64,000 bases of DNA, taken from an uncultured Bacilli bacterium (GTDB lineage: Bacteria; Bacillota_I; Bacilli_A; RF39; UBA660). Position 1 is the stretch's first letter, and each line of letters begins with the position of its first letter. The position numbers and the translations under genes are program-made. Positions 6,035 through 29,376 of this stretch are shown here, one piece after another. Under the pieces are notes generated by a model. It ran no database searches. It was given only the letters and a program-made list of their open reading frames with translations, and was not told the DNA's origin. Location: NCBI GenBank assembly GCA_963931515.1, contig OZ007022.1:882122-946121 (forward strand). The letters run 5' to 3'.

Positions 6035-6239
6035 TAATATTCTCCTTTACATTTTTATTTAATTTGTCATTATTAATATTTATTATATCATTTATTCTAG
6101 TGATTTCGTTTATTTTTTCTTGATAACCTTTTAAGGCCGAAAAGGGAGCAAACTGAGCGGAACGATTTTTTAATGACATTGGTTTTCTTTTTTTAGATAC
6201 ATGATGTGGCATATTTATAATATCATCATAGTTAGGCAT
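6009..6239 (-). CDS. Small protein (76 aa) co-operonic with the Y-family polymerase (YolD-like by position only)
   Basis: Overlaps the polymerase ORF by 8 nt; no motif recognised. Confidence 0.4.
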   Translation of the reverse strand: MPNYDDIINMPHHVSKKRKPMSLKNRSAQFAPFSALKGYQEKINEITRINDIININNDKLNKNVKENINENPKTKI

Positions 6240-7719
6240 GATGGCCTCCTATTTGTTCGTTTCGCTTTTTGGTGGTAGCGACTTTTTCTAAATCCATAAG
6301 TTTTAAAATGGAATTTTTGCCATATTTTTCTTTAATGTTTAAAAGGGTCCCCTGGAGTTTTCTTTCTTTTGCTTCTTCTCTTTTTTCATTTTCTAAAATG
6401 TTAGTTTGTTTTTCTGAATCTGAAAATAAATCTAGTTGATGATATTTTGTTTTATGAATTTCTAATTTTTCATCTGTTACATCAATGGCGGTTAGGTTAA
6501 TTCTTTTGATTAATAGTTTGGGATTAATAATTTTATCATATAGTTTTATTAGGTTATTCATGATTATTTTAGAAGATGATGTTTTATGGGTTAAGGTTAT
6601 GGTCCCGTGAGCATGTTTAGGAATTTTTCTTCCATAAAAGTCAGTGGTTATTTCTCCTTCATAATTATTATTTATGTTTTGAATGTCATAACCAATGGTT
6701 AAGGTTAGTTTATCTGTGACAAGGCTTTTGGCTGTAAGGTCAAGGGCAAGTGAATCAGCCATTTCACAGATAACTAATTTAGTTTCTTTATAATTATATG
6801 GACAATCAAGTACTTGACCTGAGGTTATACATCTATTATTTGGAGTATAGGATTTTATAGACTCTATTGTACATGGCTCATATCCCCAAGCATGATCGAT
6901 TAATAGTTCGGCATTTATACCGAATAATTTATAAAGTAAGTCTTCATTTTGAATAGAACATCTAGCAATATCTCCCATGGTATAGATGCCATACTTTTCT
7001 AATCTTTTGGCTATTCCTTTACCTACCCGCCAAATATCGGTAATTGGTTTATGATACCATATTTGTTTTCGATAAGACGTTTCATCAAGTTTAGCTATTC
7101 TAACACCATATTTGTTTGGCTTTGTGTGTTTGGCAACGATGTCCATTGCAACTTTAGCTAGAAATAAATTGGTACCTATGCCAGCAGTGGCAGTAATACC
7201 TGTTTGTTTATAAATGTCATTAATTATTTTGGTGACAAGTTCTTCTGAGGCAAGGTTATAGTATTTTAAATAATTAGTTATGTCGGCAAATATTTCATCA
7301 ATGGAATATACAAATATGTCATCACTTGATAAATATTTTAGATATATGCTATAGATTTTGGCTGATGTATCTATATAATGAGCCATTCTGGGTTTGGCTA
7401 TTATGAAAGATAATTCTTTGGTTTTATCTTTTTTTAATTCATCATCATTAGATGATCGACCAGTAAATGGTTTATAACTATTTTGTTTTTTTCTTAGTTT
7501 ATTTATTTCTTTGACTTTTGATATTACTTCAAATAGTCTTGCTCTACCACCTACTCCATACTGTTTTAATGATGGGCTTACGGCAAGGCAAATGGTTTTT
7601 TCAGTTCTTTCTTTATCAGCAACAACGAGGTTTGTTTTTAAAGGATCTAATCCTCTTTCTACGCATTCTACTGAAGCATAGAAACTTTTTAAATCGATAC
7701 ATATATATGTCTTTTCCAT
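6232..7719 (-). CDS. Y-family (translesion) DNA polymerase, UmuC/DinB/UvrX-like
   Basis: N-terminus MEKTYICIDLKSFYASVECVERGLDP and palm/fingers region typical of the ImpB/MucB/SamB family; 495 aa. Confidence 0.8.
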   Translation of the reverse strand: MEKTYICIDLKSFYASVECVERGLDPLKTNLVVADKERTEKTICLAVSPSLKQYGVGGRARLFEVISKVKEINKLRKKQNSYKPFTGRSSNDDELKKDKTKELSFIIAKPRMAHYIDTSAKIYSIYLKYLSSDDIFVYSIDEIFADITNYLKYYNLASEELVTKIINDIYKQTGITATAGIGTNLFLAKVAMDIVAKHTKPNKYGVRIAKLDETSYRKQIWYHKPITDIWRVGKGIAKRLEKYGIYTMGDIARCSIQNEDLLYKLFGINAELLIDHAWGYEPCTIESIKSYTPNNRCITSGQVLDCPYNYKETKLVICEMADSLALDLTAKSLVTDKLTLTIGYDIQNINNNYEGEITTDFYGRKIPKHAHGTITLTHKTSSSKIIMNNLIKLYDKIINPKLLIKRINLTAIDVTDEKLEIHKTKYHQLDLFSDSEKQTNILENEKREEAKERKLQGTLLNIKEKYGKNSILKLMDLEKVATTKKRNEQIGGHHA

Positions 7720-7821: not shown

Positions 7822-8496
7822 TTATGTCAAAAATATAAGCCATATTCCTAAGATGATAAAAATAATAAAAGTGATTATACTAAATTTACTAATACTAATT
7901 TTTTTCATATTGTTTTTTTCTAGGGCTTTGGTTTCTCCAATATGTTTTAGACCAAATAGTTTGGTTTTACTTAAATCTTCACTTGTGTATAATCCGAAAG
8001 CCATTGGATTATCATATTCTGAGTATTCAAAGTCTTTTAATTTTAATAGATCAAAAAACATGATTAAGTCAGCTGAACATCCTGATATATTTAAAATGGA
8101 CAACCAAATTAATACATTATTGTTTGTAAGAATTCCTATGATATAAGTAATAACTCCAATTATGATGAATGGGAATAATAAAGAAATTAAAATATTTCTT
8201 TTACTGATATTTTGTTTACATAAACAACATAATATCCCCTTCTCTAGATGAGCACCATAGGTAATGTTTTTGAATTTGGCACCATTAATAACGTAAGCTA
8301 TACTATGAAGTAATTCGTGGAGAATTAGATATGGAATGATAAGTAAAAATATTAATTCAAAATCTTTATCAGTCATAGTAATCTCATTAGAGAAAAAGAA
8401 AGTTATGAATATCATAATAATAAAAATTATAACTGATATTATTTGGAGAATTACTCCATTCATTTCATATATACAGTATTTCTTTTCTTGGTTCAT
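7822..8496 (-). CDS. Membrane protein with HExxH motif (DUF3267-like putative zincin peptidase)
   Basis: Several TM helices and HELLHSIAYV motif. Confidence 0.5.
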   Translation of the reverse strand: MNQEKKYCIYEMNGVILQIISVIIFIIMIFITFFFSNEITMTDKDFELIFLLIIPYLILHELLHSIAYVINGAKFKNITYGAHLEKGILCCLCKQNISKRNILISLLFPFIIIGVITYIIGILTNNNVLIWLSILNISGCSADLIMFFDLLKLKDFEYSEYDNPMAFGLYTSEDLSKTKLFGLKHIGETKALEKNNMKKISISKFSIITFIIFIILGIWLIFLT

Positions 8497-8645
8497 TTTG
8501 CGACTCCTATAATTAATTTATATGTATTAATGTTTTTTTGTAATTTTGATAGAGCAATTTTACTTTTATTTTTGCTATACTTCACCTCTATGCTTTTTAA
8601 TACATTTTAATTATAACATAACTTCTTTAGCTAATATAGTCTCTA

Positions 8646-8660
8646 CTGATTACGGGAGTT
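8646..8660. repeat. 15-nt fragment identical to part of tRNA-Gly, inverted relative to the gene
   Basis: ctgattacgggagtt is the exact reverse complement of plus 10133-10147 inside the tRNA-Gly gene. Confidence 0.6.
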
Positions 8661-8699
8661 TTAGCTATTTTATATAAGAACAAAATACCAAAATAAATT

Positions 8700-8812
8700 T
8701 TGGCATTAGCTTACCTCACGGTAAGCTTTTTCTACTTCACAGAAACCTAAGGCTTCTCCATAGACCAGTATCGGATGGTTGCCACCCTAATTTTTTTGTC
8801 AAAATTTATTGA
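8700..8812 (-). ncRNA. Candidate omega-RNA (reRNA) scaffold in the right end of the tnpB element
   Basis: Directly abuts the tnpB stop codon (8813-8815); two hairpins (gcttacc-tcac-ggtaagc; agaaacc-taa-ggcttct); the second locus copy keeps the hairpins through compensatory substitutions. Confidence 0.45.
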
Positions 8813-9959
8813 TTAAATAGATTGTTCAATTCCTCTCATATATATTTCTAAACCTTTAAACATTATATTAACTGCTGCATTATAATCACGTTCATGCTCT
8901 ATATGACATATTGGACATTCCCATTTTCTTATACTTAAATCTTTGACTTCCTTATTTTGATAATTACAAACATTGCATATTTGACTACTTGGATAATATC
9001 TATCTATTTGTATCAGTTTTTTATTATTCCAGTTAGCTTTATATTTAAGTACTCTAATTATTTCTGATATTGGGTTTTCATTTAAACCTTTTGCTACATA
9101 GTGATTCTTCTGCATATTTCTTACATCTAAATCTTCAGTTACTATAATGTCATTTTCGTTTATTAGTTTATTTGTTATATCATGTATCATATGTTTTCTT
9201 GCATTTCTTATTTTTTGATATAATCTTTGTATTTTTAATTTCATTTTATATCTATTTTTACTTCCTTTTTTACATCTTGATATTCCTCTTTGTAAGCCTA
9301 TCATTCTTTTTGTGTTAAGTTTTATATTATTTTCTATTTTCTCATTAAATGATGTTACTATTAAATCTTTTATCCCTAGATCTATTCCTATTATACTTGT
9401 TGGAACAAAAGATGGTCGTATTAATTCTTCGTTGGTTAAGACACTTACATAATATCTTCCTGCATCTTTTTTAATTACGGCACTTTTTACCTCACCAGGT
9501 ATAATATTTTTATTCCTATATCCTCTAATTTTTACTTCTTTTAATTTTGGTAAGGTAATTGTCTTATTTTTTAAATCTAATTTTATACTGTTATAATTAT
9601 TACCTTTATAACCACTTTTTATATTATTAGTTTTATAACTTTCATGAACTCCTTTAGCTTTAAATCTAGGATAACCACTTCCGTTATAAAATCTTTTATA
9701 AGCATCTTCTAAATTAAATAGACTATTTCGAAGTGCGCAGCTATCAACTTCTTTTAAAAATGGATATTCTTTAGAAAGTGATGGTATCAATTTAATTTGG
9801 TCATAAGCTGTTTTACTTTTGCCTGCTATCTTATATTCTTTAATTTTATCATCTAAAAAATAATTATATATAAATCTAGCGCAACCAATAGTTTTATTAA
9901 TTAACTCTTCTTGCTTTTCATTAGGATACATTCTAAATACATAACCTTTTAGTATTTTC
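8813..9959 (-). CDS. tnpB: TnpB (IS200/IS605 OrfB; RuvC-like RNA-guided nuclease family)
   Basis: MKILKGYVFRMYPNEKQEEL start typical of OrfB; C-terminal zinc finger and RuvC-III region (CNVCNYQ...WECPICHIEHERDYNAAVNI). The track ORF extends to 10030 from an upstream start; ATG at 9957-9959 is preferred. Confidence 0.8.
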
Positions 9960-10109
9960 ATAACATCACCCTCTATCATTATTGCAATCAATATATCACG
10001 AATAGTTATATTTGTAAATAGTTTTAGCAAACGTTTGTTTACTGTTCAAAAATGCACTTTCCTTATATAATAAAAAACCCACACTTAAATGTATGAGTTT
10101 AAATTTCAA

Positions 10110-10183
10110 TGGAGCGGATGAGGAGAATCGAACTCCCGTAATCAGCTTGGAAGGCTGGGGTTCTACCATTGAACTACATCCGC
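10110..10183 (-). tRNA. tRNA-Gly (anticodon UCC)
   Basis: Reverse complement reads GCGGATGTAGTTCAATGGTAGAAC...CCTTCCAAGCTGA...GGGAGTTCGATTCTCC...CGCTCCA: cloverleaf with T-arm GTTCGATTC, anticodon loop CTTCCAA, encoded CCA. Confidence 0.85.
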
Positions 10184-10279
10184 AATTAGTAGACAATATA
10201 AATTATACTATATTTTGAATATTTGTCAATAGCACCCCAGCCGTTTTTTGAAAAAAATATAATACTGGAAATTGACAAT

Positions 10280-10618
10280 TCAGTTTTGATAAGTTTGAAA
10301 GTATATTAAGAGTAATATACCAGCAATTAAAAAACTACTTCCTAATAATTCTATTTCATATAATCTTTTTTCATGATAAGAAGCTTTTTCTAATGCTTTA
10401 TAATTTCTAATGAAGAAATAAATATAAATTAATAGAGTGACAATTAATGTGAGTTCAAAAATTTTATTTGATTTATCATGATATGTTTCTTGGTTTGTTG
10501 TTACATACTCCTCCTCTATTTTATCACCATATACATTTAAAAGAGAGATGATGGCAAAAATAATCCAAAGAAGTTCTTCAAATTTTAGTCTTTTAATTTC
10601 ATTTGTGGTATCATTCAT
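10280..10618 (-). CDS. Hypothetical small membrane protein (112 aa)
   Basis: Three predicted hydrophobic helices; no motif. Confidence 0.45.
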   Translation of the reverse strand: MNDTTNEIKRLKFEELLWIIFAIISLLNVYGDKIEEEYVTTNQETYHDKSNKIFELTLIVTLLIYIYFFIRNYKALEKASYHEKRLYEIELLGSSFLIAGILLLIYFQTYQN

Positions 10619-10718
10619 ATTATATTTTATTCTATTAAAAATAGTGTAATGATTTTATATTAAAATTAAAAAGTCCTTGATTTTTCATTTATATCAAAGA
10701 CTAACTATTAAATTATAT

Positions 10719-12050
10719 TTATTTTAACTTTTTTAATAACTTTTTACTATTTAACAAGATTCTATCTTTGGCTTCTGTTTCTCTAAAACGTGGTAATAGT
10801 TTAAAGTCATCTAATATTCTATATACTAACATTCTTTCATCTAGGTATTTAATGTTATTTAACTCTTTATAATATTTCTTTATGTATTCAAATAAATGTT
10901 TATAATCTTCTGGTTTTTGATATGGATCCATTTCGATATTAGCCCATTTCCACGGAGTTTCTGCACTCATATATAACAATCTCAAATCATAATCAAATGG
11001 CGCAATTATAGAATCGTTGAAGTCAATTAGTTTTATGTTTTTATTATTATCTATTAGGATATTATCGAAGTGCAAATCATTATGGATTAGGCAAAATTTA
11101 TTGTCAGATAATATTTCATCATATTTATCTAGTGATTTTAAAATTAAAGATTGCTCTTCTTTACTAAACATATCTAATGTTTGATTAAAACTGGATATAA
11201 TTTTATCTTTTATGTAGTCACTCCAATTATATTTTGGATATGTTTTATGATGTATTTTTTGAAGTACTTGTACTATTTTTTGAATTAACGTTTCTCTTTC
11301 TTGTTCATTCATTTTATACCAATGATAATAAACTGTTTTCCCATTTACTTTCTCCATTATTTCGTAGACATAAGGTATAACACTTTTAGATTTATCAAAT
11401 TTATATAATATAGGAATGTTTTCATTGTTTTGATTAGATTTATAAAAATTGGATTCGGTATTAAATTGCTTTTCTTTTGCTGTATTGGTACAAACTTTAA
11501 TAATAAATATATCATTTACGTTAAAGATACTATTATTAAATCCAGCGTTTACCTCTTCTAATTTTTTGATATCTCCAAATATATCTTGATTAGTTTTTGC
11601 TATTTTGCGAGCAAGTTCTAATCTTTTTTCGGTTAAATTTTCTTTTACTTCAAATATTTTAAATACTACTTTAGTGTTTTTATTAAAATTAGGGTTAATG
11701 GTTTCGAAATGCTTTATATGGGATTTTTTCCAAGTTTCAAAATTTTCTTTACCTTCAAGTTTAGAAAGATTTTCATCGATGTTTTTAAATTCTGTTATTA
11801 TTACTTTTTTAGTTTTGGTTGTGCAGGCGGTTTTGTCGTTATCGAAAACTAACATTTCTTCTTCATTATCATTTGGAACTTCTTTTTTATCATATAAATA
11901 AGTTGTAGCTGTTTTCATACCTTCTAACACCAATTTAATTTGGTTATCATTGTCATAAGCAAAACGCCATGTTTTTAAATTGTTATTCATGCTATCACCA
12001 CCAATTCTAATACTTTTTTTATTATTTATGCATTTATAGATTTCTAACAT
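10719..12050 (-). CDS. ASCH-domain / phosphotransferase (APH/choline-kinase-like) fusion protein
   Basis: N-terminal ASCH-like segment (LVLEGMKTATTYLYD) and C-terminal kinase motifs (LIHNDLHFDNILID, IDFNDS). Confidence 0.6.
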   Translation of the reverse strand: MLEIYKCINNKKSIRIGGDSMNNNLKTWRFAYDNDNQIKLVLEGMKTATTYLYDKKEVPNDNEEEMLVFDNDKTACTTKTKKVIITEFKNIDENLSKLEGKENFETWKKSHIKHFETINPNFNKNTKVVFKIFEVKENLTEKRLELARKIAKTNQDIFGDIKKLEEVNAGFNNSIFNVNDIFIIKVCTNTAKEKQFNTESNFYKSNQNNENIPILYKFDKSKSVIPYVYEIMEKVNGKTVYYHWYKMNEQERETLIQKIVQVLQKIHHKTYPKYNWSDYIKDKIISSFNQTLDMFSKEEQSLILKSLDKYDEILSDNKFCLIHNDLHFDNILIDNNKNIKLIDFNDSIIAPFDYDLRLLYMSAETPWKWANIEMDPYQKPEDYKHLFEYIKKYYKELNNIKYLDERMLVYRILDDFKLLPRFRETEAKDRILLNSKKLLKKLK

Positions 12051-26069: not shown

Positions 26070-26920
26070 TTATTGTTTCATTTCTAATTTCTTGTTTACC
26101 TTACCTTCTAATCGTTTTCTTTCTTTTTCAAGTTCTTTTAAACTTTTCTTAGGTGTAGGCATATCTTCGGGCATCATTCCACCAATGTCAGCAATCGCTT
26201 TTCTAACCTTTTTACCCACTTCATAATGGACATTTTTGGCATTGTATTCTCCTTGAACATTATCCCTTATAAGTTTTTGCTTCGTTTGATTGATTCTAAA
26301 CAAATTAGCTACTAGCTCATCATCATTCATATTATCTAAAATATCTTCTCTATATCGTAACTTTTTTCTTTTAAAAATGTCATCAGCTGTTTCACCATTG
26401 TATAGTCCTTTATATCCCGCATTATGAAACTCAGCCATATTTTTACTCCTGCAGATGAGGCAACTTTTTGTAAAGTATAATTACCTTGTTTTGTTAATTT
26501 TCTTTGATAAAGTCTTTTTTCATCCTCTGATAGAGAATCATATTCTTGTTCGGTGATTTCCTGCTTTCTCGTTTGAACAGCAAAATAAGTTTGACCTAAT
26601 GCGACAACTTCTTTACTTGGATCAGCATTTTGTACTATCAAATAACAAATATATCTTGATAATTTATAATCCTTAATAAATTCTTGTTTGCCTTTTCCTG
26701 TTTTTATTGGCTTGTTGATTTCAACAACCCAATCTTCATTACCATGAATACTATTATTTGCAGACATTATTGCTTTATCAATTACTTTCTTAAAATTTCT
26801 CCAATCTTTATATTCTAAAACCTTTTGCAGATCACGGGCAAGCCAATATTCGTTACCATATTCATCAATATGTTTTATATCTTCAAAAGTTTTACTAGTA
26901 TATTTATTAACAATTTCCAT
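26070..26920 (-). pseudogene. dinD: DNA-damage-inducible protein D (DinD) homologue, frameshifted
   Basis: Two overlapping ORFs (26336-26920 and 26070-26438) together align along DinD (LSRYICYLIVQNADPSKEVVALGQTYFAVQTRKQE; EFHNAGYKGLY...MPTPKKSLKELE); frames switch at the T5 run 26440-26444. Confidence 0.7.
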
Positions 26921-27260: not shown

Positions 27261-27743
27261 CTAATTAGAATAATTAATTTGAATGTATTTTAGTATTTCT
27301 TCAATGTTTTTTTCAGAAACGAAGTCATAACCTTTATGAAACATTTCTTTTGTTTTAGAATCTTTTTGTTTCATGGCTTTTCCAGCTAGTTTGACAATTA
27401 TCTTTTTGAATATATTTAATTTTGAATAGTTAATGCCACCTCTTAGGTAAAATAAAGGTTTATCTATTTGATTAGATTTTTTTAGTTCATTTAGATAATC
27501 ACTAGAAAAAGGATAAGCCCCGACAGCACCATAGATAACGATGTTAAAGTTATCTTGAAGTTTAGATTTCCCTTGTATTTTTCCAGCACAAATCCATCCT
27601 AAAAAAATAGCTTTATCTTCTTTGGTTAAATGTTTTGCTGCTTCGGCTGAAGTATAATATGGAATTTTTAGTTTGTCACTTAACATTTTGGCATATCTTA
27701 AGGTGTGATTTGTTTTACTTTCGTATATTATAGCTTTAATCAT
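27261..27743 (-). CDS. Flavodoxin-like protein (160 aa)
   Basis: MIKAIIYESKTNHTLRYAKML N-terminus typical of short flavodoxin-fold proteins. Confidence 0.5.
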   Translation of the reverse strand: MIKAIIYESKTNHTLRYAKMLSDKLKIPYYTSAEAAKHLTKEDKAIFLGWICAGKIQGKSKLQDNFNIVIYGAVGAYPFSSDYLNELKKSNQIDKPLFYLRGGINYSKLNIFKKIIVKLAGKAMKQKDSKTKEMFHKGYDFVSEKNIEEILKYIQINYSN

Positions 27744-27835
27744 AAAATAGACTCCTTTATAATCTTTAATATTATTATATCATACATTATCAAAAACGAA
27801 ATATTCATAGAACAAAAGTCAAAAATTATTTTAAC

Positions 27836-27945
27836 TTAGCTTACCTCACGATAAGCTTTTTCTACTTCACAGGGACCTTAGGTCCCTCCATAGACCAATA
27901 TCGGATAGTCGCTACCCTACTTTTTTACTTTGTCAAAATTTAACA
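27836..27945 (-). ncRNA. Orphan omega-RNA-like structured module (second copy of the tnpB right end, no tnpB attached)
   Basis: About 85% identical to 8707-8808; hairpin 2 differs by paired substitutions (agggacc-tta-ggtccct versus agaaacc-taa-ggcttct), hairpin 3 likewise; strand inferred from the tnpB-linked copy. Confidence 0.45.
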
Positions 27946-28110
27946 ATTGTTTTATTTTTTATTATATAATAGATTAACTACTCATTCTTAATGTTTGTTT
28001 AAATTAACCCTTAATATTTTTATATCATCACCTCATCTCTTTGATGTACTTAGCATATCACAAACATTTGTTCTTGTAAATAGTTTTTTATTTCTTACAA
28101 AGCAAATTCT
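27836..28110. mobile_element. tnpB-less IS200/IS605-derived remnant (right-end block plus internal left-end block)
   Basis: 27836-27945 matches the element-1 right end; 28025-28100 resembles element-1 9960-10040 (shared catcacc...atatcac...ttgtaaatagtttt). Confidence 0.45.
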
Positions 28111-28215
28111 TAGTATAAAAAAGGGGTGAAATAAATTTCACCCTTCACCCTAACGGGTGATTTTTTTTGCTTTAATCAAAATTTATTGGTAAAATTTAGT
28201 TTAAAGTGATGTTAT

Positions 28216-29376
28216 ATGATATTGTGTACTAGTAAAGATAAAGATTTTGAAAATTATAAAGAACGTATTTCTATTAGAAAAGTATTTTTTACTATTAAAG
28301 AAATTTTTAAAGATCATTGGGATGATTATCAAACTAAATATTCTCATATTAAAAGACGTCCTATTATCAATATTGTAATTGATAAATTTCTTAAATGTAA
28401 AACTTTTCTTCTTGGTTATTCTGTTTATAAATGTCCTATTTGTGATAAGGAAAAAGTTGTCCCTAATACTTGTAAAACTAGATTCTGTTCTTCTTGTGGT
28501 AATAAATACAATGAAGATAGAGCTATTTCTATCTTTTCTAAACTATTTAAATGGCGTCATCGTCATGTTGTTTTTACTATTCCAGAAGATTTAAGAGGAA
28601 TCTTTCAAAATAATAGAAAACTATTAAATCTTCTTTTTCAAGCTTCTGCTATTACTATTAAATATTGGTTTAAAGAAAAATACAAAAGGGACAATCTCAT
28701 TCCTGCCTTTATATCTGTCCTTCATACTTATGGTAGAGCTTTAAATTGGAATCCACACATTCATATGATTTTATTAGATGGTGGTATATCCAAAACAAAT
28801 TTTAAAAACATAGACTTCTTTTCATATGCTTCTTTCAGAAAACGATTTATGAAAGTCATTCTAGATTTATTAGAAAATGAACTTGGAAAAGATGAATTTA
28901 GACAAATCAAAAACGATTTATATCGTAGATACAAAGATGGCTTTTATGTTTACGCCCCTAAATCATTATATAAATCTATTAAAGATCTCTTAAAATATGT
29001 TTGTAGATATTTATCGAGACCTGTTATGGCTGAATCTCGTATTTTAGATTATGATGGTATCTTTGTCACCTTTTGGTATCAAAGGCATACTGATAACGTA
29101 ATTGTTATAGAAAAAATTCATGCTTATGAATTTATTCATCGATTAATTATTCATATCCCTGAACCAAATTTTAAATATATTAGATTTTATGGTGCTTACA
29201 ATAACAAAACTATTATTACTATTGATGTAGCTAAATTTATGGATAATGACAGAATTAATTTTAAAAAATCTCTAAACAAATGGCGTAATAAAATTTTAAT
29301 TAATTTTCATGTTGATCCTCTTATTTGTCCACATTGTCACGAAGAAATGGTATACTATAATAGTTACTACACGTAA
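28216..29376 (+). CDS. IS91-family (HUH, Y2) rolling-circle transposase
   Basis: N-terminal zinc-binding CPICDK...CKTRFCSSCG; HUH motif LHTYGRALNWNPHIHMILLDGG; catalytic tyrosine pair in LKYVCRYLSRPVMAESRI. Confidence 0.75.
   Translation: MILCTSKDKDFENYKERISIRKVFFTIKEIFKDHWDDYQTKYSHIKRRPIINIVIDKFLKCKTFLLGYSVYKCPICDKEKVVPNTCKTRFCSSCGNKYNEDRAISIFSKLFKWRHRHVVFTIPEDLRGIFQNNRKLLNLLFQASAITIKYWFKEKYKRDNLIPAFISVLHTYGRALNWNPHIHMILLDGGISKTNFKNIDFFSYASFRKRFMKVILDLLENELGKDEFRQIKNDLYRRYKDGFYVYAPKSLYKSIKDLLKYVCRYLSRPVMAESRILDYDGIFVTFWYQRHTDNVIVIEKIHAYEFIHRLIIHIPEPNFKYIRFYGAYNNKTIITIDVAKFMDNDRINFKKSLNKWRNKILINFHVDPLICPHCHEEMVYYNSYYT

Follow-up and report, generated by a model that had tools for sequence, protein, structure and literature searches.

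A probable tnpB-only, non-autonomous IS200/IS605 insertion sequence behind a tRNA-Gly terminator in an uncultured Bacilli genome

The window analysed in this study is a 64,000-nucleotide stretch of an uncultured Bacilli bacterium (contig OZ007022.1, positions 882,122 to 946,121), in which a tnpB gene lies close to the gene for tRNA-Gly(UCC). This arrangement raises the question of whether the gene belongs to an intact mobile element, and of whether its position beside a tRNA gene has any meaning of its own. A sequence-only reading had proposed a tnpB-only element of the IS200/IS605 type that would need TnpA in trans, and the protein profiles, the alignment to ISDra2 TnpB, a covarying right end, the multicopy status and an empty site all agree with this assignment. 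At 1385 bp (8678-10062), the element is very probably an IS200/IS605-family insertion sequence of the non-autonomous, tnpB-only kind (IS1341-type). The features of its coding part and right end are as follows.

8678-10062, minus strand: the element, 1385 bp, delimited by comparison of copies and by the empty site
8813-9961, minus strand: tnpB coding sequence, 382 amino acids plus stop, from Pfam, NCBIfam and the ISDra2 alignment
9380-9382, 9134-9136 and 8885-8887, minus strand: codons of the TnpB RuvC residues D194, E276 and D359
8906-8977, minus strand: TnpB zinc finger, C329 to C352
8678-8812, minus strand: right end (RE), predicted omega-RNA scaffold, from alignments A1/A3 of 25-27 copies
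8773-8787, 8731-8764, 8708-8727 and 8686-8705, minus strand: RE hairpins, from folding and covariation, followed by TATTTTGTTC
8678-8682, minus strand: terminal motif TGTTC, in the role of transposon-encoded motif
8662-8677, minus strand: predicted 16-nt omega-RNA guide, 5'-UUAUAUAAAAUAGCUA, placed by comparison with ISDra2

The tnpB gene and its right end

The tnpB gene starts with the ATG at 9961 and ends with the stop codon at 8813-8815 of the minus strand, with GAGGGTG as ribosome-binding site 5 nt upstream of the start; a 405-aa frame opening with TTG was rejected as the gene, as it is a mechanical upstream extension of the 382-aa frame. The protein scored above the cutoffs of three Pfam domains, OrfB_IS605 (PF01385; 77.8 bits, cutoff 30.5), Cas12f1-like_TNB (PF07282; 69.8 bits, cutoff 26.3) and HTH_OrfB_IS605 (PF12323; 61.8 bits, cutoff 21), as well as that of NCBIfam NF040570, guided_TnpB ("RNA-guided endonuclease TnpB family protein"; 288 bits, cutoff 100). 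The stricter NF038281 (IS200_TnpB) gave a score of 373 and its cutoff of 425 was not reached. The match to ISDra2 TnpB runs end to end, with residues 5-371 aligning to structures 8h1j and 8bf8/8exa (E = 1.5e-69), which supports the placement of the gene in the IS200/IS605 type. The zinc finger and the DYNAAVNI motif named in the sequence-only reading are present as CNVC (aa 329-332), CPIC (aa 349-352) and ERDYNAAVNI (aa 357-366). Counted through the alignment, D194, E276 and D359 fall on D191, E278 and D361 of ISDra2, the last of which we take, from the 2023 cryo-EM structure papers, to be the third catalytic residue, and both CxxC pairs are kept. Cleavage by ISDra2 TnpB has been found experimentally to need D191 and E278 (PMC8612924). 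Because the RuvC residues and CxxC pairs are kept in this alignment, with no loss of RuvC residues seen, the nuclease looks intact from its sequence. The exact protein occurs at just this one locus in public assemblies, and no source gives it a name.

The RE comprises 135 non-coding nucleotides after the tnpB stop, ending in TGTTC. The structured block that had been described 3' of the gene is real, but it consists of four hairpins rather than three. Its single-sequence fold beats 100 of 100 shuffles (z = -3.3), and across 27 copies it forms 33 pairs with 97.9% of cells paired, against 35-51% in slid-alignment controls. Compensatory changes occur at six pairs among these copies, and the observed covariation was reached in none of 500 shuffles. 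A covariance model of the RE (R1) gives 163 bits on the window element. RNAalifold offers an alternative 10-bp long-range stem (8800-8809 with 8690-8699), in which ATAAATTTTG just after the stop codon pairs with the 5' arm of the last hairpin; since this stem is invariant, it is neither supported nor refuted by covariation. No Rfam match was found for the RE, and an E-value-threshold search of 8000-10800 returned the tRNA only.

By analogy, the RE is expected to be the scaffold of an omega, or right-end, RNA, as the RNA of ISDra2 covers the RE and ends in approximately 16 nt of flank that act as guide (PMC8612924). The structure could equally represent DNA hairpins for TnpA, and the last hairpin (8686-8705), which as DNA folds with z = -3.2 and shows covariation, probably serves both roles. 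The flank after GTTC, which is the predicted guide, differs at every copy, and the first 8 nt of the guide predicted for the window copy (8670-8677, TTATATAA) are missing from the empty allele described below.

Element limits, copies and the missing transposase

A search of genome contigs, with one genome per species, yielded 46 related loci, and for 29 of these, all full copies, both ends could be mapped. Related uncultured Bacillota (uncultured Bacilli MAGs, Candidatus Coprosoma and Firmicutes bacterium CAG:822) carry at least 30 full copies, with amino acid identities of 84-93%, approximately 20 of the loci coming from one closed 1.54-Mb chromosome (OZ007038.1), and the mapped copies have unrelated flanks at each site. 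The family copies all end in ...TTTGTTC, except for one ending in ...ACGTTC, with unrelated sequence beyond, and in the 29 copies the flanks diverge directly after GTTC. On the other side, homology starts at TAGGAATTTGC (variant A) or at GGAAAGTGC (variant B, the form of the window copy). The element proposed in the sequence-only reading therefore stands, while its limits of 8686 and 10075 were about 10 nt off at each end. No terminal inverted repeats were found at the element ends. The features of the left side are listed below.

9962-10062, minus strand: left end (LE), variant B, starting GGAAAGTGC and conserved inward in 11 copies with unrelated outer flanks
10018-9990, minus strand: promoter-like TTTACA-17-TATATT with TG extension, from a promoter scan
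10063-10069, minus strand: TAM TATATAA (core TATAA), in the flank, bordering the LE of all 11 variant-B copies

The promoter-like site of the LE is kept across copies and is well placed for driving tnpB. The subterminal hairpin that TnpA would be expected to recognise, at 10026-10043 in the variant-B LE of the window, is weak (7 bp) and folds no better than shuffles, and the variant-A LE of L002 has a 9-bp hairpin with z = -2.4. The TAM of variant-A copies is T(A/T)TAC (18 copies, counting the mini element described below), and the TAM is usually preceded by a T run. A TAM-type motif is also present in empty sites (L055 and L007:7255-7420) and is for this reason assigned to the flank, as target, rather than to the element. 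Cross-comparison of loci provided more distant occupied and empty pairs, with L007:7255-7420 as the counterpart of the L015 copy and L037 as that of the L029 copy, and these empty alleles have a TATAC-like pentamer.

The empty site corresponding to the window copy is found in L055, L056 and L057, where the tRNA-Gly gene, its terminator and ...TTTTTTATTATATAA are joined directly to AATAGCTAAAACTCCCG...; the junction reads as the tRNA-Gly terminator and TTATATAA, then AATAGCTAAAAC.... The flanks of these three loci are otherwise identical to those of the window, and their contigs carry a 93%-identical DUF3267 neighbour gene. The window copy is a real insertion, and, as the site is polymorphic among close strains, a recent one. 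The window exceeds the empty allele by 1393 bases and not 1385, the 8 additional nucleotides lying at 8670-8677: TTATATAA stands to the left and to the right of the element (10063-10070 and 8670-8677), and once in the empty site of L055-L057. This apparent 8-bp duplication is atypical for IS200/IS605, no target-site duplication was found in other copies, and scarless peel-and-paste would not predict 8 extra nucleotides at the right junction, so that this finding counts against the best explanation of the locus. The same holds for the lack of a cognate tnpA among the sequences searched, the weak LE hairpin, the NF038281 score below its cutoff and the absence of an Rfam family for the RE. The extra TTATATAA can be read as 8 nt of former flank, ending in the TAM-like TATAA and carried along, or as a local duplication. 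It may record TnpA cutting beyond the true RE, at a downstream site that resembles a TAM, in which case the old flank, and hence the old guide, would have been carried to the new site. An LE boundary that takes in TATATAA/TWTAC, with TTTR as TAM, would abolish the duplication; it was rejected, as other empty sites also have the pentamer, which moreover is not constant within a single LE subfamily.

Comparison of L048 (2358-3900) with the window (8600-10130) shows identity alternating between blocks of 100% and of 84-91%, and in L048 the right flank of the window copy adjoins a copy whose left side comes from another locus, next to Rpn-like and IS256-type genes. In L053 (1987-2200), from the same sample as this mosaic, an IS66-type gene comes after the tRNA-Gly side. 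The mosaic identity and swapped flanks imply that copies exchange sequence, and they indicate that recombination and gene conversion between copies of the insertion sequence rearrange the chromosome.

Within the window, R1 found no further copies beyond a mini element and a partial RE-like relic. The mini element is as follows.

27810-28112, minus strand: tnpB-less 303-bp derivative, 87% identical to the RE by blastn, R1 score 140 bits

In this derivative an LE of variant A is followed by what remains of the tnpB start, which is mutated (ATAAAAATATTAAGGGTTAAT), and then by an RE preserved in full. Its build is like that of a PATE (palindrome-associated transposable element), and it may represent a solo omega-RNA gene. 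It is present in 10 of 10 related contigs fetched, shortened in L068 by an IS4-type insertion, and no empty site for it was found among the 10 strains. It lies directly upstream of a flavodoxin-like gene (27261-27743). The relic (28116-28204, minus strand; 36 bits, E ~1e-6 with R1), which ends in a hairpin and TTTTTTATAC, abuts the LE of the mini element and is either what is left of a different element that had served as target, or a plain terminator caught by R1. Beside the mini element, the frame at 28216-29376 (plus strand) is, by its annotation in the identical contig L066 (Zn_Tnp_IS91/Y2_Tnp), an IS91-family transposase; a Y-family polymerase gene is located at 6232-7719 and a Bro-N gene near 26336-26920. 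The polymerase gene and the Bro-N gene point to scattered stretches of mobile-element DNA in this region.

The absence of tnpA claimed in the sequence-only reading was confirmed for the 64-kb window, where tblastn with a Y1 consensus found no Y1 tnpA; the same query detected tnpA in the positive controls L007 and L039. A cognate transposase was found at neither locus. The tnpA of L007 (2385-2822), the sole Y1 tnpA near a close copy, belongs to a separate IS200 with unrelated ends, and that of L039 is part of a full but distant IS605, with a TnpB only 35% identical to that of the window. Since there is no tnpA in the window, the element is filed as non-autonomous and tnpB-only (IS1341-type). 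The definition of the IS200/IS605 family allows tnpB-only members, and the majority of tnpB elements have no tnpA of their own and are moved in trans all the same (PMC10055086).

It is conceivable, though rather improbable, that the element is an intact but immobile fossil, for which no compatible TnpA exists and which persists by vertical descent and inter-copy recombination, its TnpB and omega RNA having no current job. The lack of tnpA in 64 kb, the restriction of the exact protein to a single locus in public assemblies, the fixation of the neighbouring mini element in all strains fetched and the unrelated ends of the only nearby Y1 tnpA in a relative would all fit such a history. However, a site that is empty in L055-L057 and occupied in the window, between flanks that are otherwise identical, points to recent insertion, and a closed genome of a relative, which holds approximately 20 loci, argues in the same direction, as do the unrelated flanks of every mapped copy. 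The reading frame, catalytic residues, promoter and RE are also all intact, and mobilisation in trans is the common situation of tnpB elements without tnpA (PMC10055086).

The tRNA-Gly gene and insertion behind terminators

The sequence-only reading had placed the left end about 40 bp from tRNA-Gly(UCC), and the distance to the 3' end of the tRNA is indeed 47 nt, or 39 nt counting TTATATAA. The features between and beyond are as follows.

10110-10183, minus strand: tRNA-Gly(UCC), from ARAGORN, with an Rfam tRNA score of 67 bits
10229-10202, minus strand: tRNA-Gly promoter, perfect consensus (12/12 in the promoter scan)
10075-10100, minus strand: tRNA-Gly intrinsic terminator, 10 pairs then a T run in the terminator scan

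The terminator of the tRNA-Gly gene fills the gap between tRNA and TAM, and the TAM follows directly after its T run. A survey of LE flanks (loci L001-L032, L048 and the window) placed only three of 31 copies behind a tRNA, each time a different one (Gly, Ser, Glu). A strict terminator detector accepts the insertion sites of 15 of the 30 other copies, and visual inspection adds more, so that at least half of the insertion sites lie directly 3' of a terminator-like hairpin and T run; the background of the detector is four of 148 unoccupied TTRTWTAC motifs and 1.3% of TAM-like pentamers in the same DNA, and the corresponding share for the extended target motif where it is unoccupied is 2-6%. The contrast between three of 31 copies behind a tRNA and at least half behind a terminator makes the tRNA adjacency a by-product of a terminator-flank preference: the closeness to tRNA-Gly is without tRNA-specific meaning, as the element family sits behind terminators generally.

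There are several potential explanations for the terminator-flank preference, which may reflect an extended T-rich target, selection against within-gene insertions, or real structural targeting. That the DNA just 3' of an intrinsic terminator (hairpin plus T run plus RTWTAM) is recognised by the family as an insertion signal is considered unlikely. If true, IS200/IS605 TnpA would here show a preference for target structure that has not been described for it, and this would explain how copies, the window copy included, come to lie behind tRNAs and other terminators without gene damage.

A different role for the tRNA is offered by a 15-nt exact inverted match, in which 8646-8660 is the reverse complement of 10131-10145 in tRNA-Gly, from the 3' strand of the anticodon stem to the 5' strand of the T stem. 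In type V-K CRISPR-associated transposons a delocalised crRNA serves homing, and the 15-nt complement beyond the RE could by the same logic be a homing guide that targets the element to tRNA-Gly. In favour of this reading, shuffles with up to two mismatches gave a mean of 0.04 such matches over the whole window and never reached the two observed, and the geometry of target, LE, tnpB, RE and match would suit homing. However, the 15-mer is also present in the empty allele, in the same place relative to the tRNA (approximately 45 nt past its 3' end), from which it follows that it predates the insertion and was not carried by the element. In addition, it occupies flank positions 18-32, outside the guide of approximately 16 nt, the matched stretch of the tRNA gene is preceded on its 5' side by GAATCG and not by the TAM, the three copies behind tRNAs are behind three different ones, and the RE flanks of other copies are unrelated. 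As it already exists in the empty allele, does not fall in the guide register and lacks a TAM, the match was rejected as a guide or homing signal, and homing to tRNA-Gly is regarded as highly improbable. The match is degenerate (10/15) in more distant strains, and it is possibly a decaying tRNA fragment or a quasi-palindrome; nothing comparable was found at the other two tRNAs of the window. A read-through transcript from tRNA-Gly in the empty allele would fold back on the tRNA through the 15-mer.

The surroundings of the tRNA-Gly gene vary between strains. In L063 (3147-3501) and L064 (3074-3501) the body of the tRNA-Gly gene is replaced by unrelated DNA up to ...GCTCCA, the 3' tip and terminator alone being shared, which makes the 3' end of tRNA-Gly look like a hot spot where other elements integrate. 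Upstream of the gene, a 443-aa APH/ASCH gene and a 112-aa gene are variable and absent in L055.

Host domestication of the TnpB, for example as a TldR-like RNA-guided repressor or another single-copy regulatory derivative, might be read from the lack of tnpA, the fixed position by a host tRNA and the conserved RNA module, but it is extremely unlikely for a protein with an intact RuvC triad in an element that is multicopy with unrelated flanks, shows presence/absence polymorphism, and has guides that differ at every copy and simply equal the flank; a nuclease-dead derivative of the TldR type was rejected on the intact triad, the copy number and the variable guides.

Proposed mode of movement and comparison with known systems

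The reading as a non-autonomous insertion sequence mobilised in trans builds on what was observed: the identity and intactness of TnpB, an RE that covaries, mapped limits, many copies and a site that is polymorphic for the insertion. By the mechanism of the family, a Y1 TnpA encoded elsewhere would excise the top strand of a donor copy as a single-stranded circle, which would be pasted 3' of TATATAA/TATAA just behind the tRNA-Gly terminator. The tnpB gene would be transcribed from the promoter within the LE, and the last approximately 135 nt of the element, together with approximately 16 nt of flank, would be transcribed as omega RNA, the four-hairpin scaffold binding TnpB and the 3' tail UUAUAUAAAAUAGCUA acting as guide. 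After excision by TnpA, the resealed donor joint, TATAA followed by TTATATAAAATAGCTA, would be cut by the complex of TnpB and omega RNA, and recombination with an element-bearing copy would then restore the element. The donor joint after excision would be the guide target under the TAM/TEM logic (PMC10055086). For the window copy, excision would leave ...TTATTATATAA joined to TTATATAAAATAGC (TATAA then TTATATAAAATAGC), compared to ...TTATTATATAA joined to AATAGC in the ancestral sequence.

The value of these results is mostly one of annotation, providing exact limits, a TAM, a predicted guide and a covariance model for an element that is highly proliferated in small-genome gut Bacillota. The many mosaic copies illustrate rearrangement driven by insertion sequences in these genomes. 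In addition, a compact TnpB of 382 aa with an A/T-rich TAM and a scaffold downstream of the reading frame could be a candidate for a miniature genome editor.

Among known systems, ISDra2 of Deinococcus radiodurans has a TnpB of the same architecture, alignable over its full length and with the D-E-D residues and the zinc finger in common. Its 3' end encodes a structured RNA that continues into flank used as guide, as is predicted for the window family, and both insert 3' of a short motif with no general target duplication. ISDra2 differs in possessing tnpA, which the window element lacks, and in its TAM, TTGAT (PMC8612924), whereas the TAM of the window family is TATAA/TATATAA or T(A/T)TAC; the scaffold of the window family also lies almost entirely downstream of the stop codon, and its RE is without an Rfam match. 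The IS1341-type, ISGst-like elements and PATEs of Geobacillus stearothermophilus (Meers et al., PMC10055086) are similar in having many tnpB-only copies with common LE and RE and a presumed trans TnpA, in following the same TAM/TEM logic, and in including ORF-less minimal derivatives that keep the omega-RNA region, a type to which the 303-bp element at 27810-28112 belongs. Compared to these, the window family occurs in another host lineage (uncultured gut Bacillota, Candidatus Coprosoma-like) and has other end sequences, with two LE variants that use different TAMs on otherwise approximately 90% identical elements. IS608 of Helicobacter pylori belongs to the same peel-and-paste family, and its TTAC is contained in the variant-A target T(A/T)TAC, but IS608 has both tnpA and tnpB, and the window copy uses TATAA. 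Group IIC introns insert after intrinsic terminators, by retrohoming, and recall the position of window-family copies directly 3' of a terminator hairpin and T run; their mobility mechanism is unrelated, however, and the preference of the insertion sequence may come from a T-rich target and selection against within-gene insertions. Measured against these systems, the element is an ordinary, typical tnpB-only member of IS200/IS605, of a thoroughly known kind that has no name yet, and the terminator-flank pattern and the carried-over TAM are the sole points that go slightly beyond the textbook.
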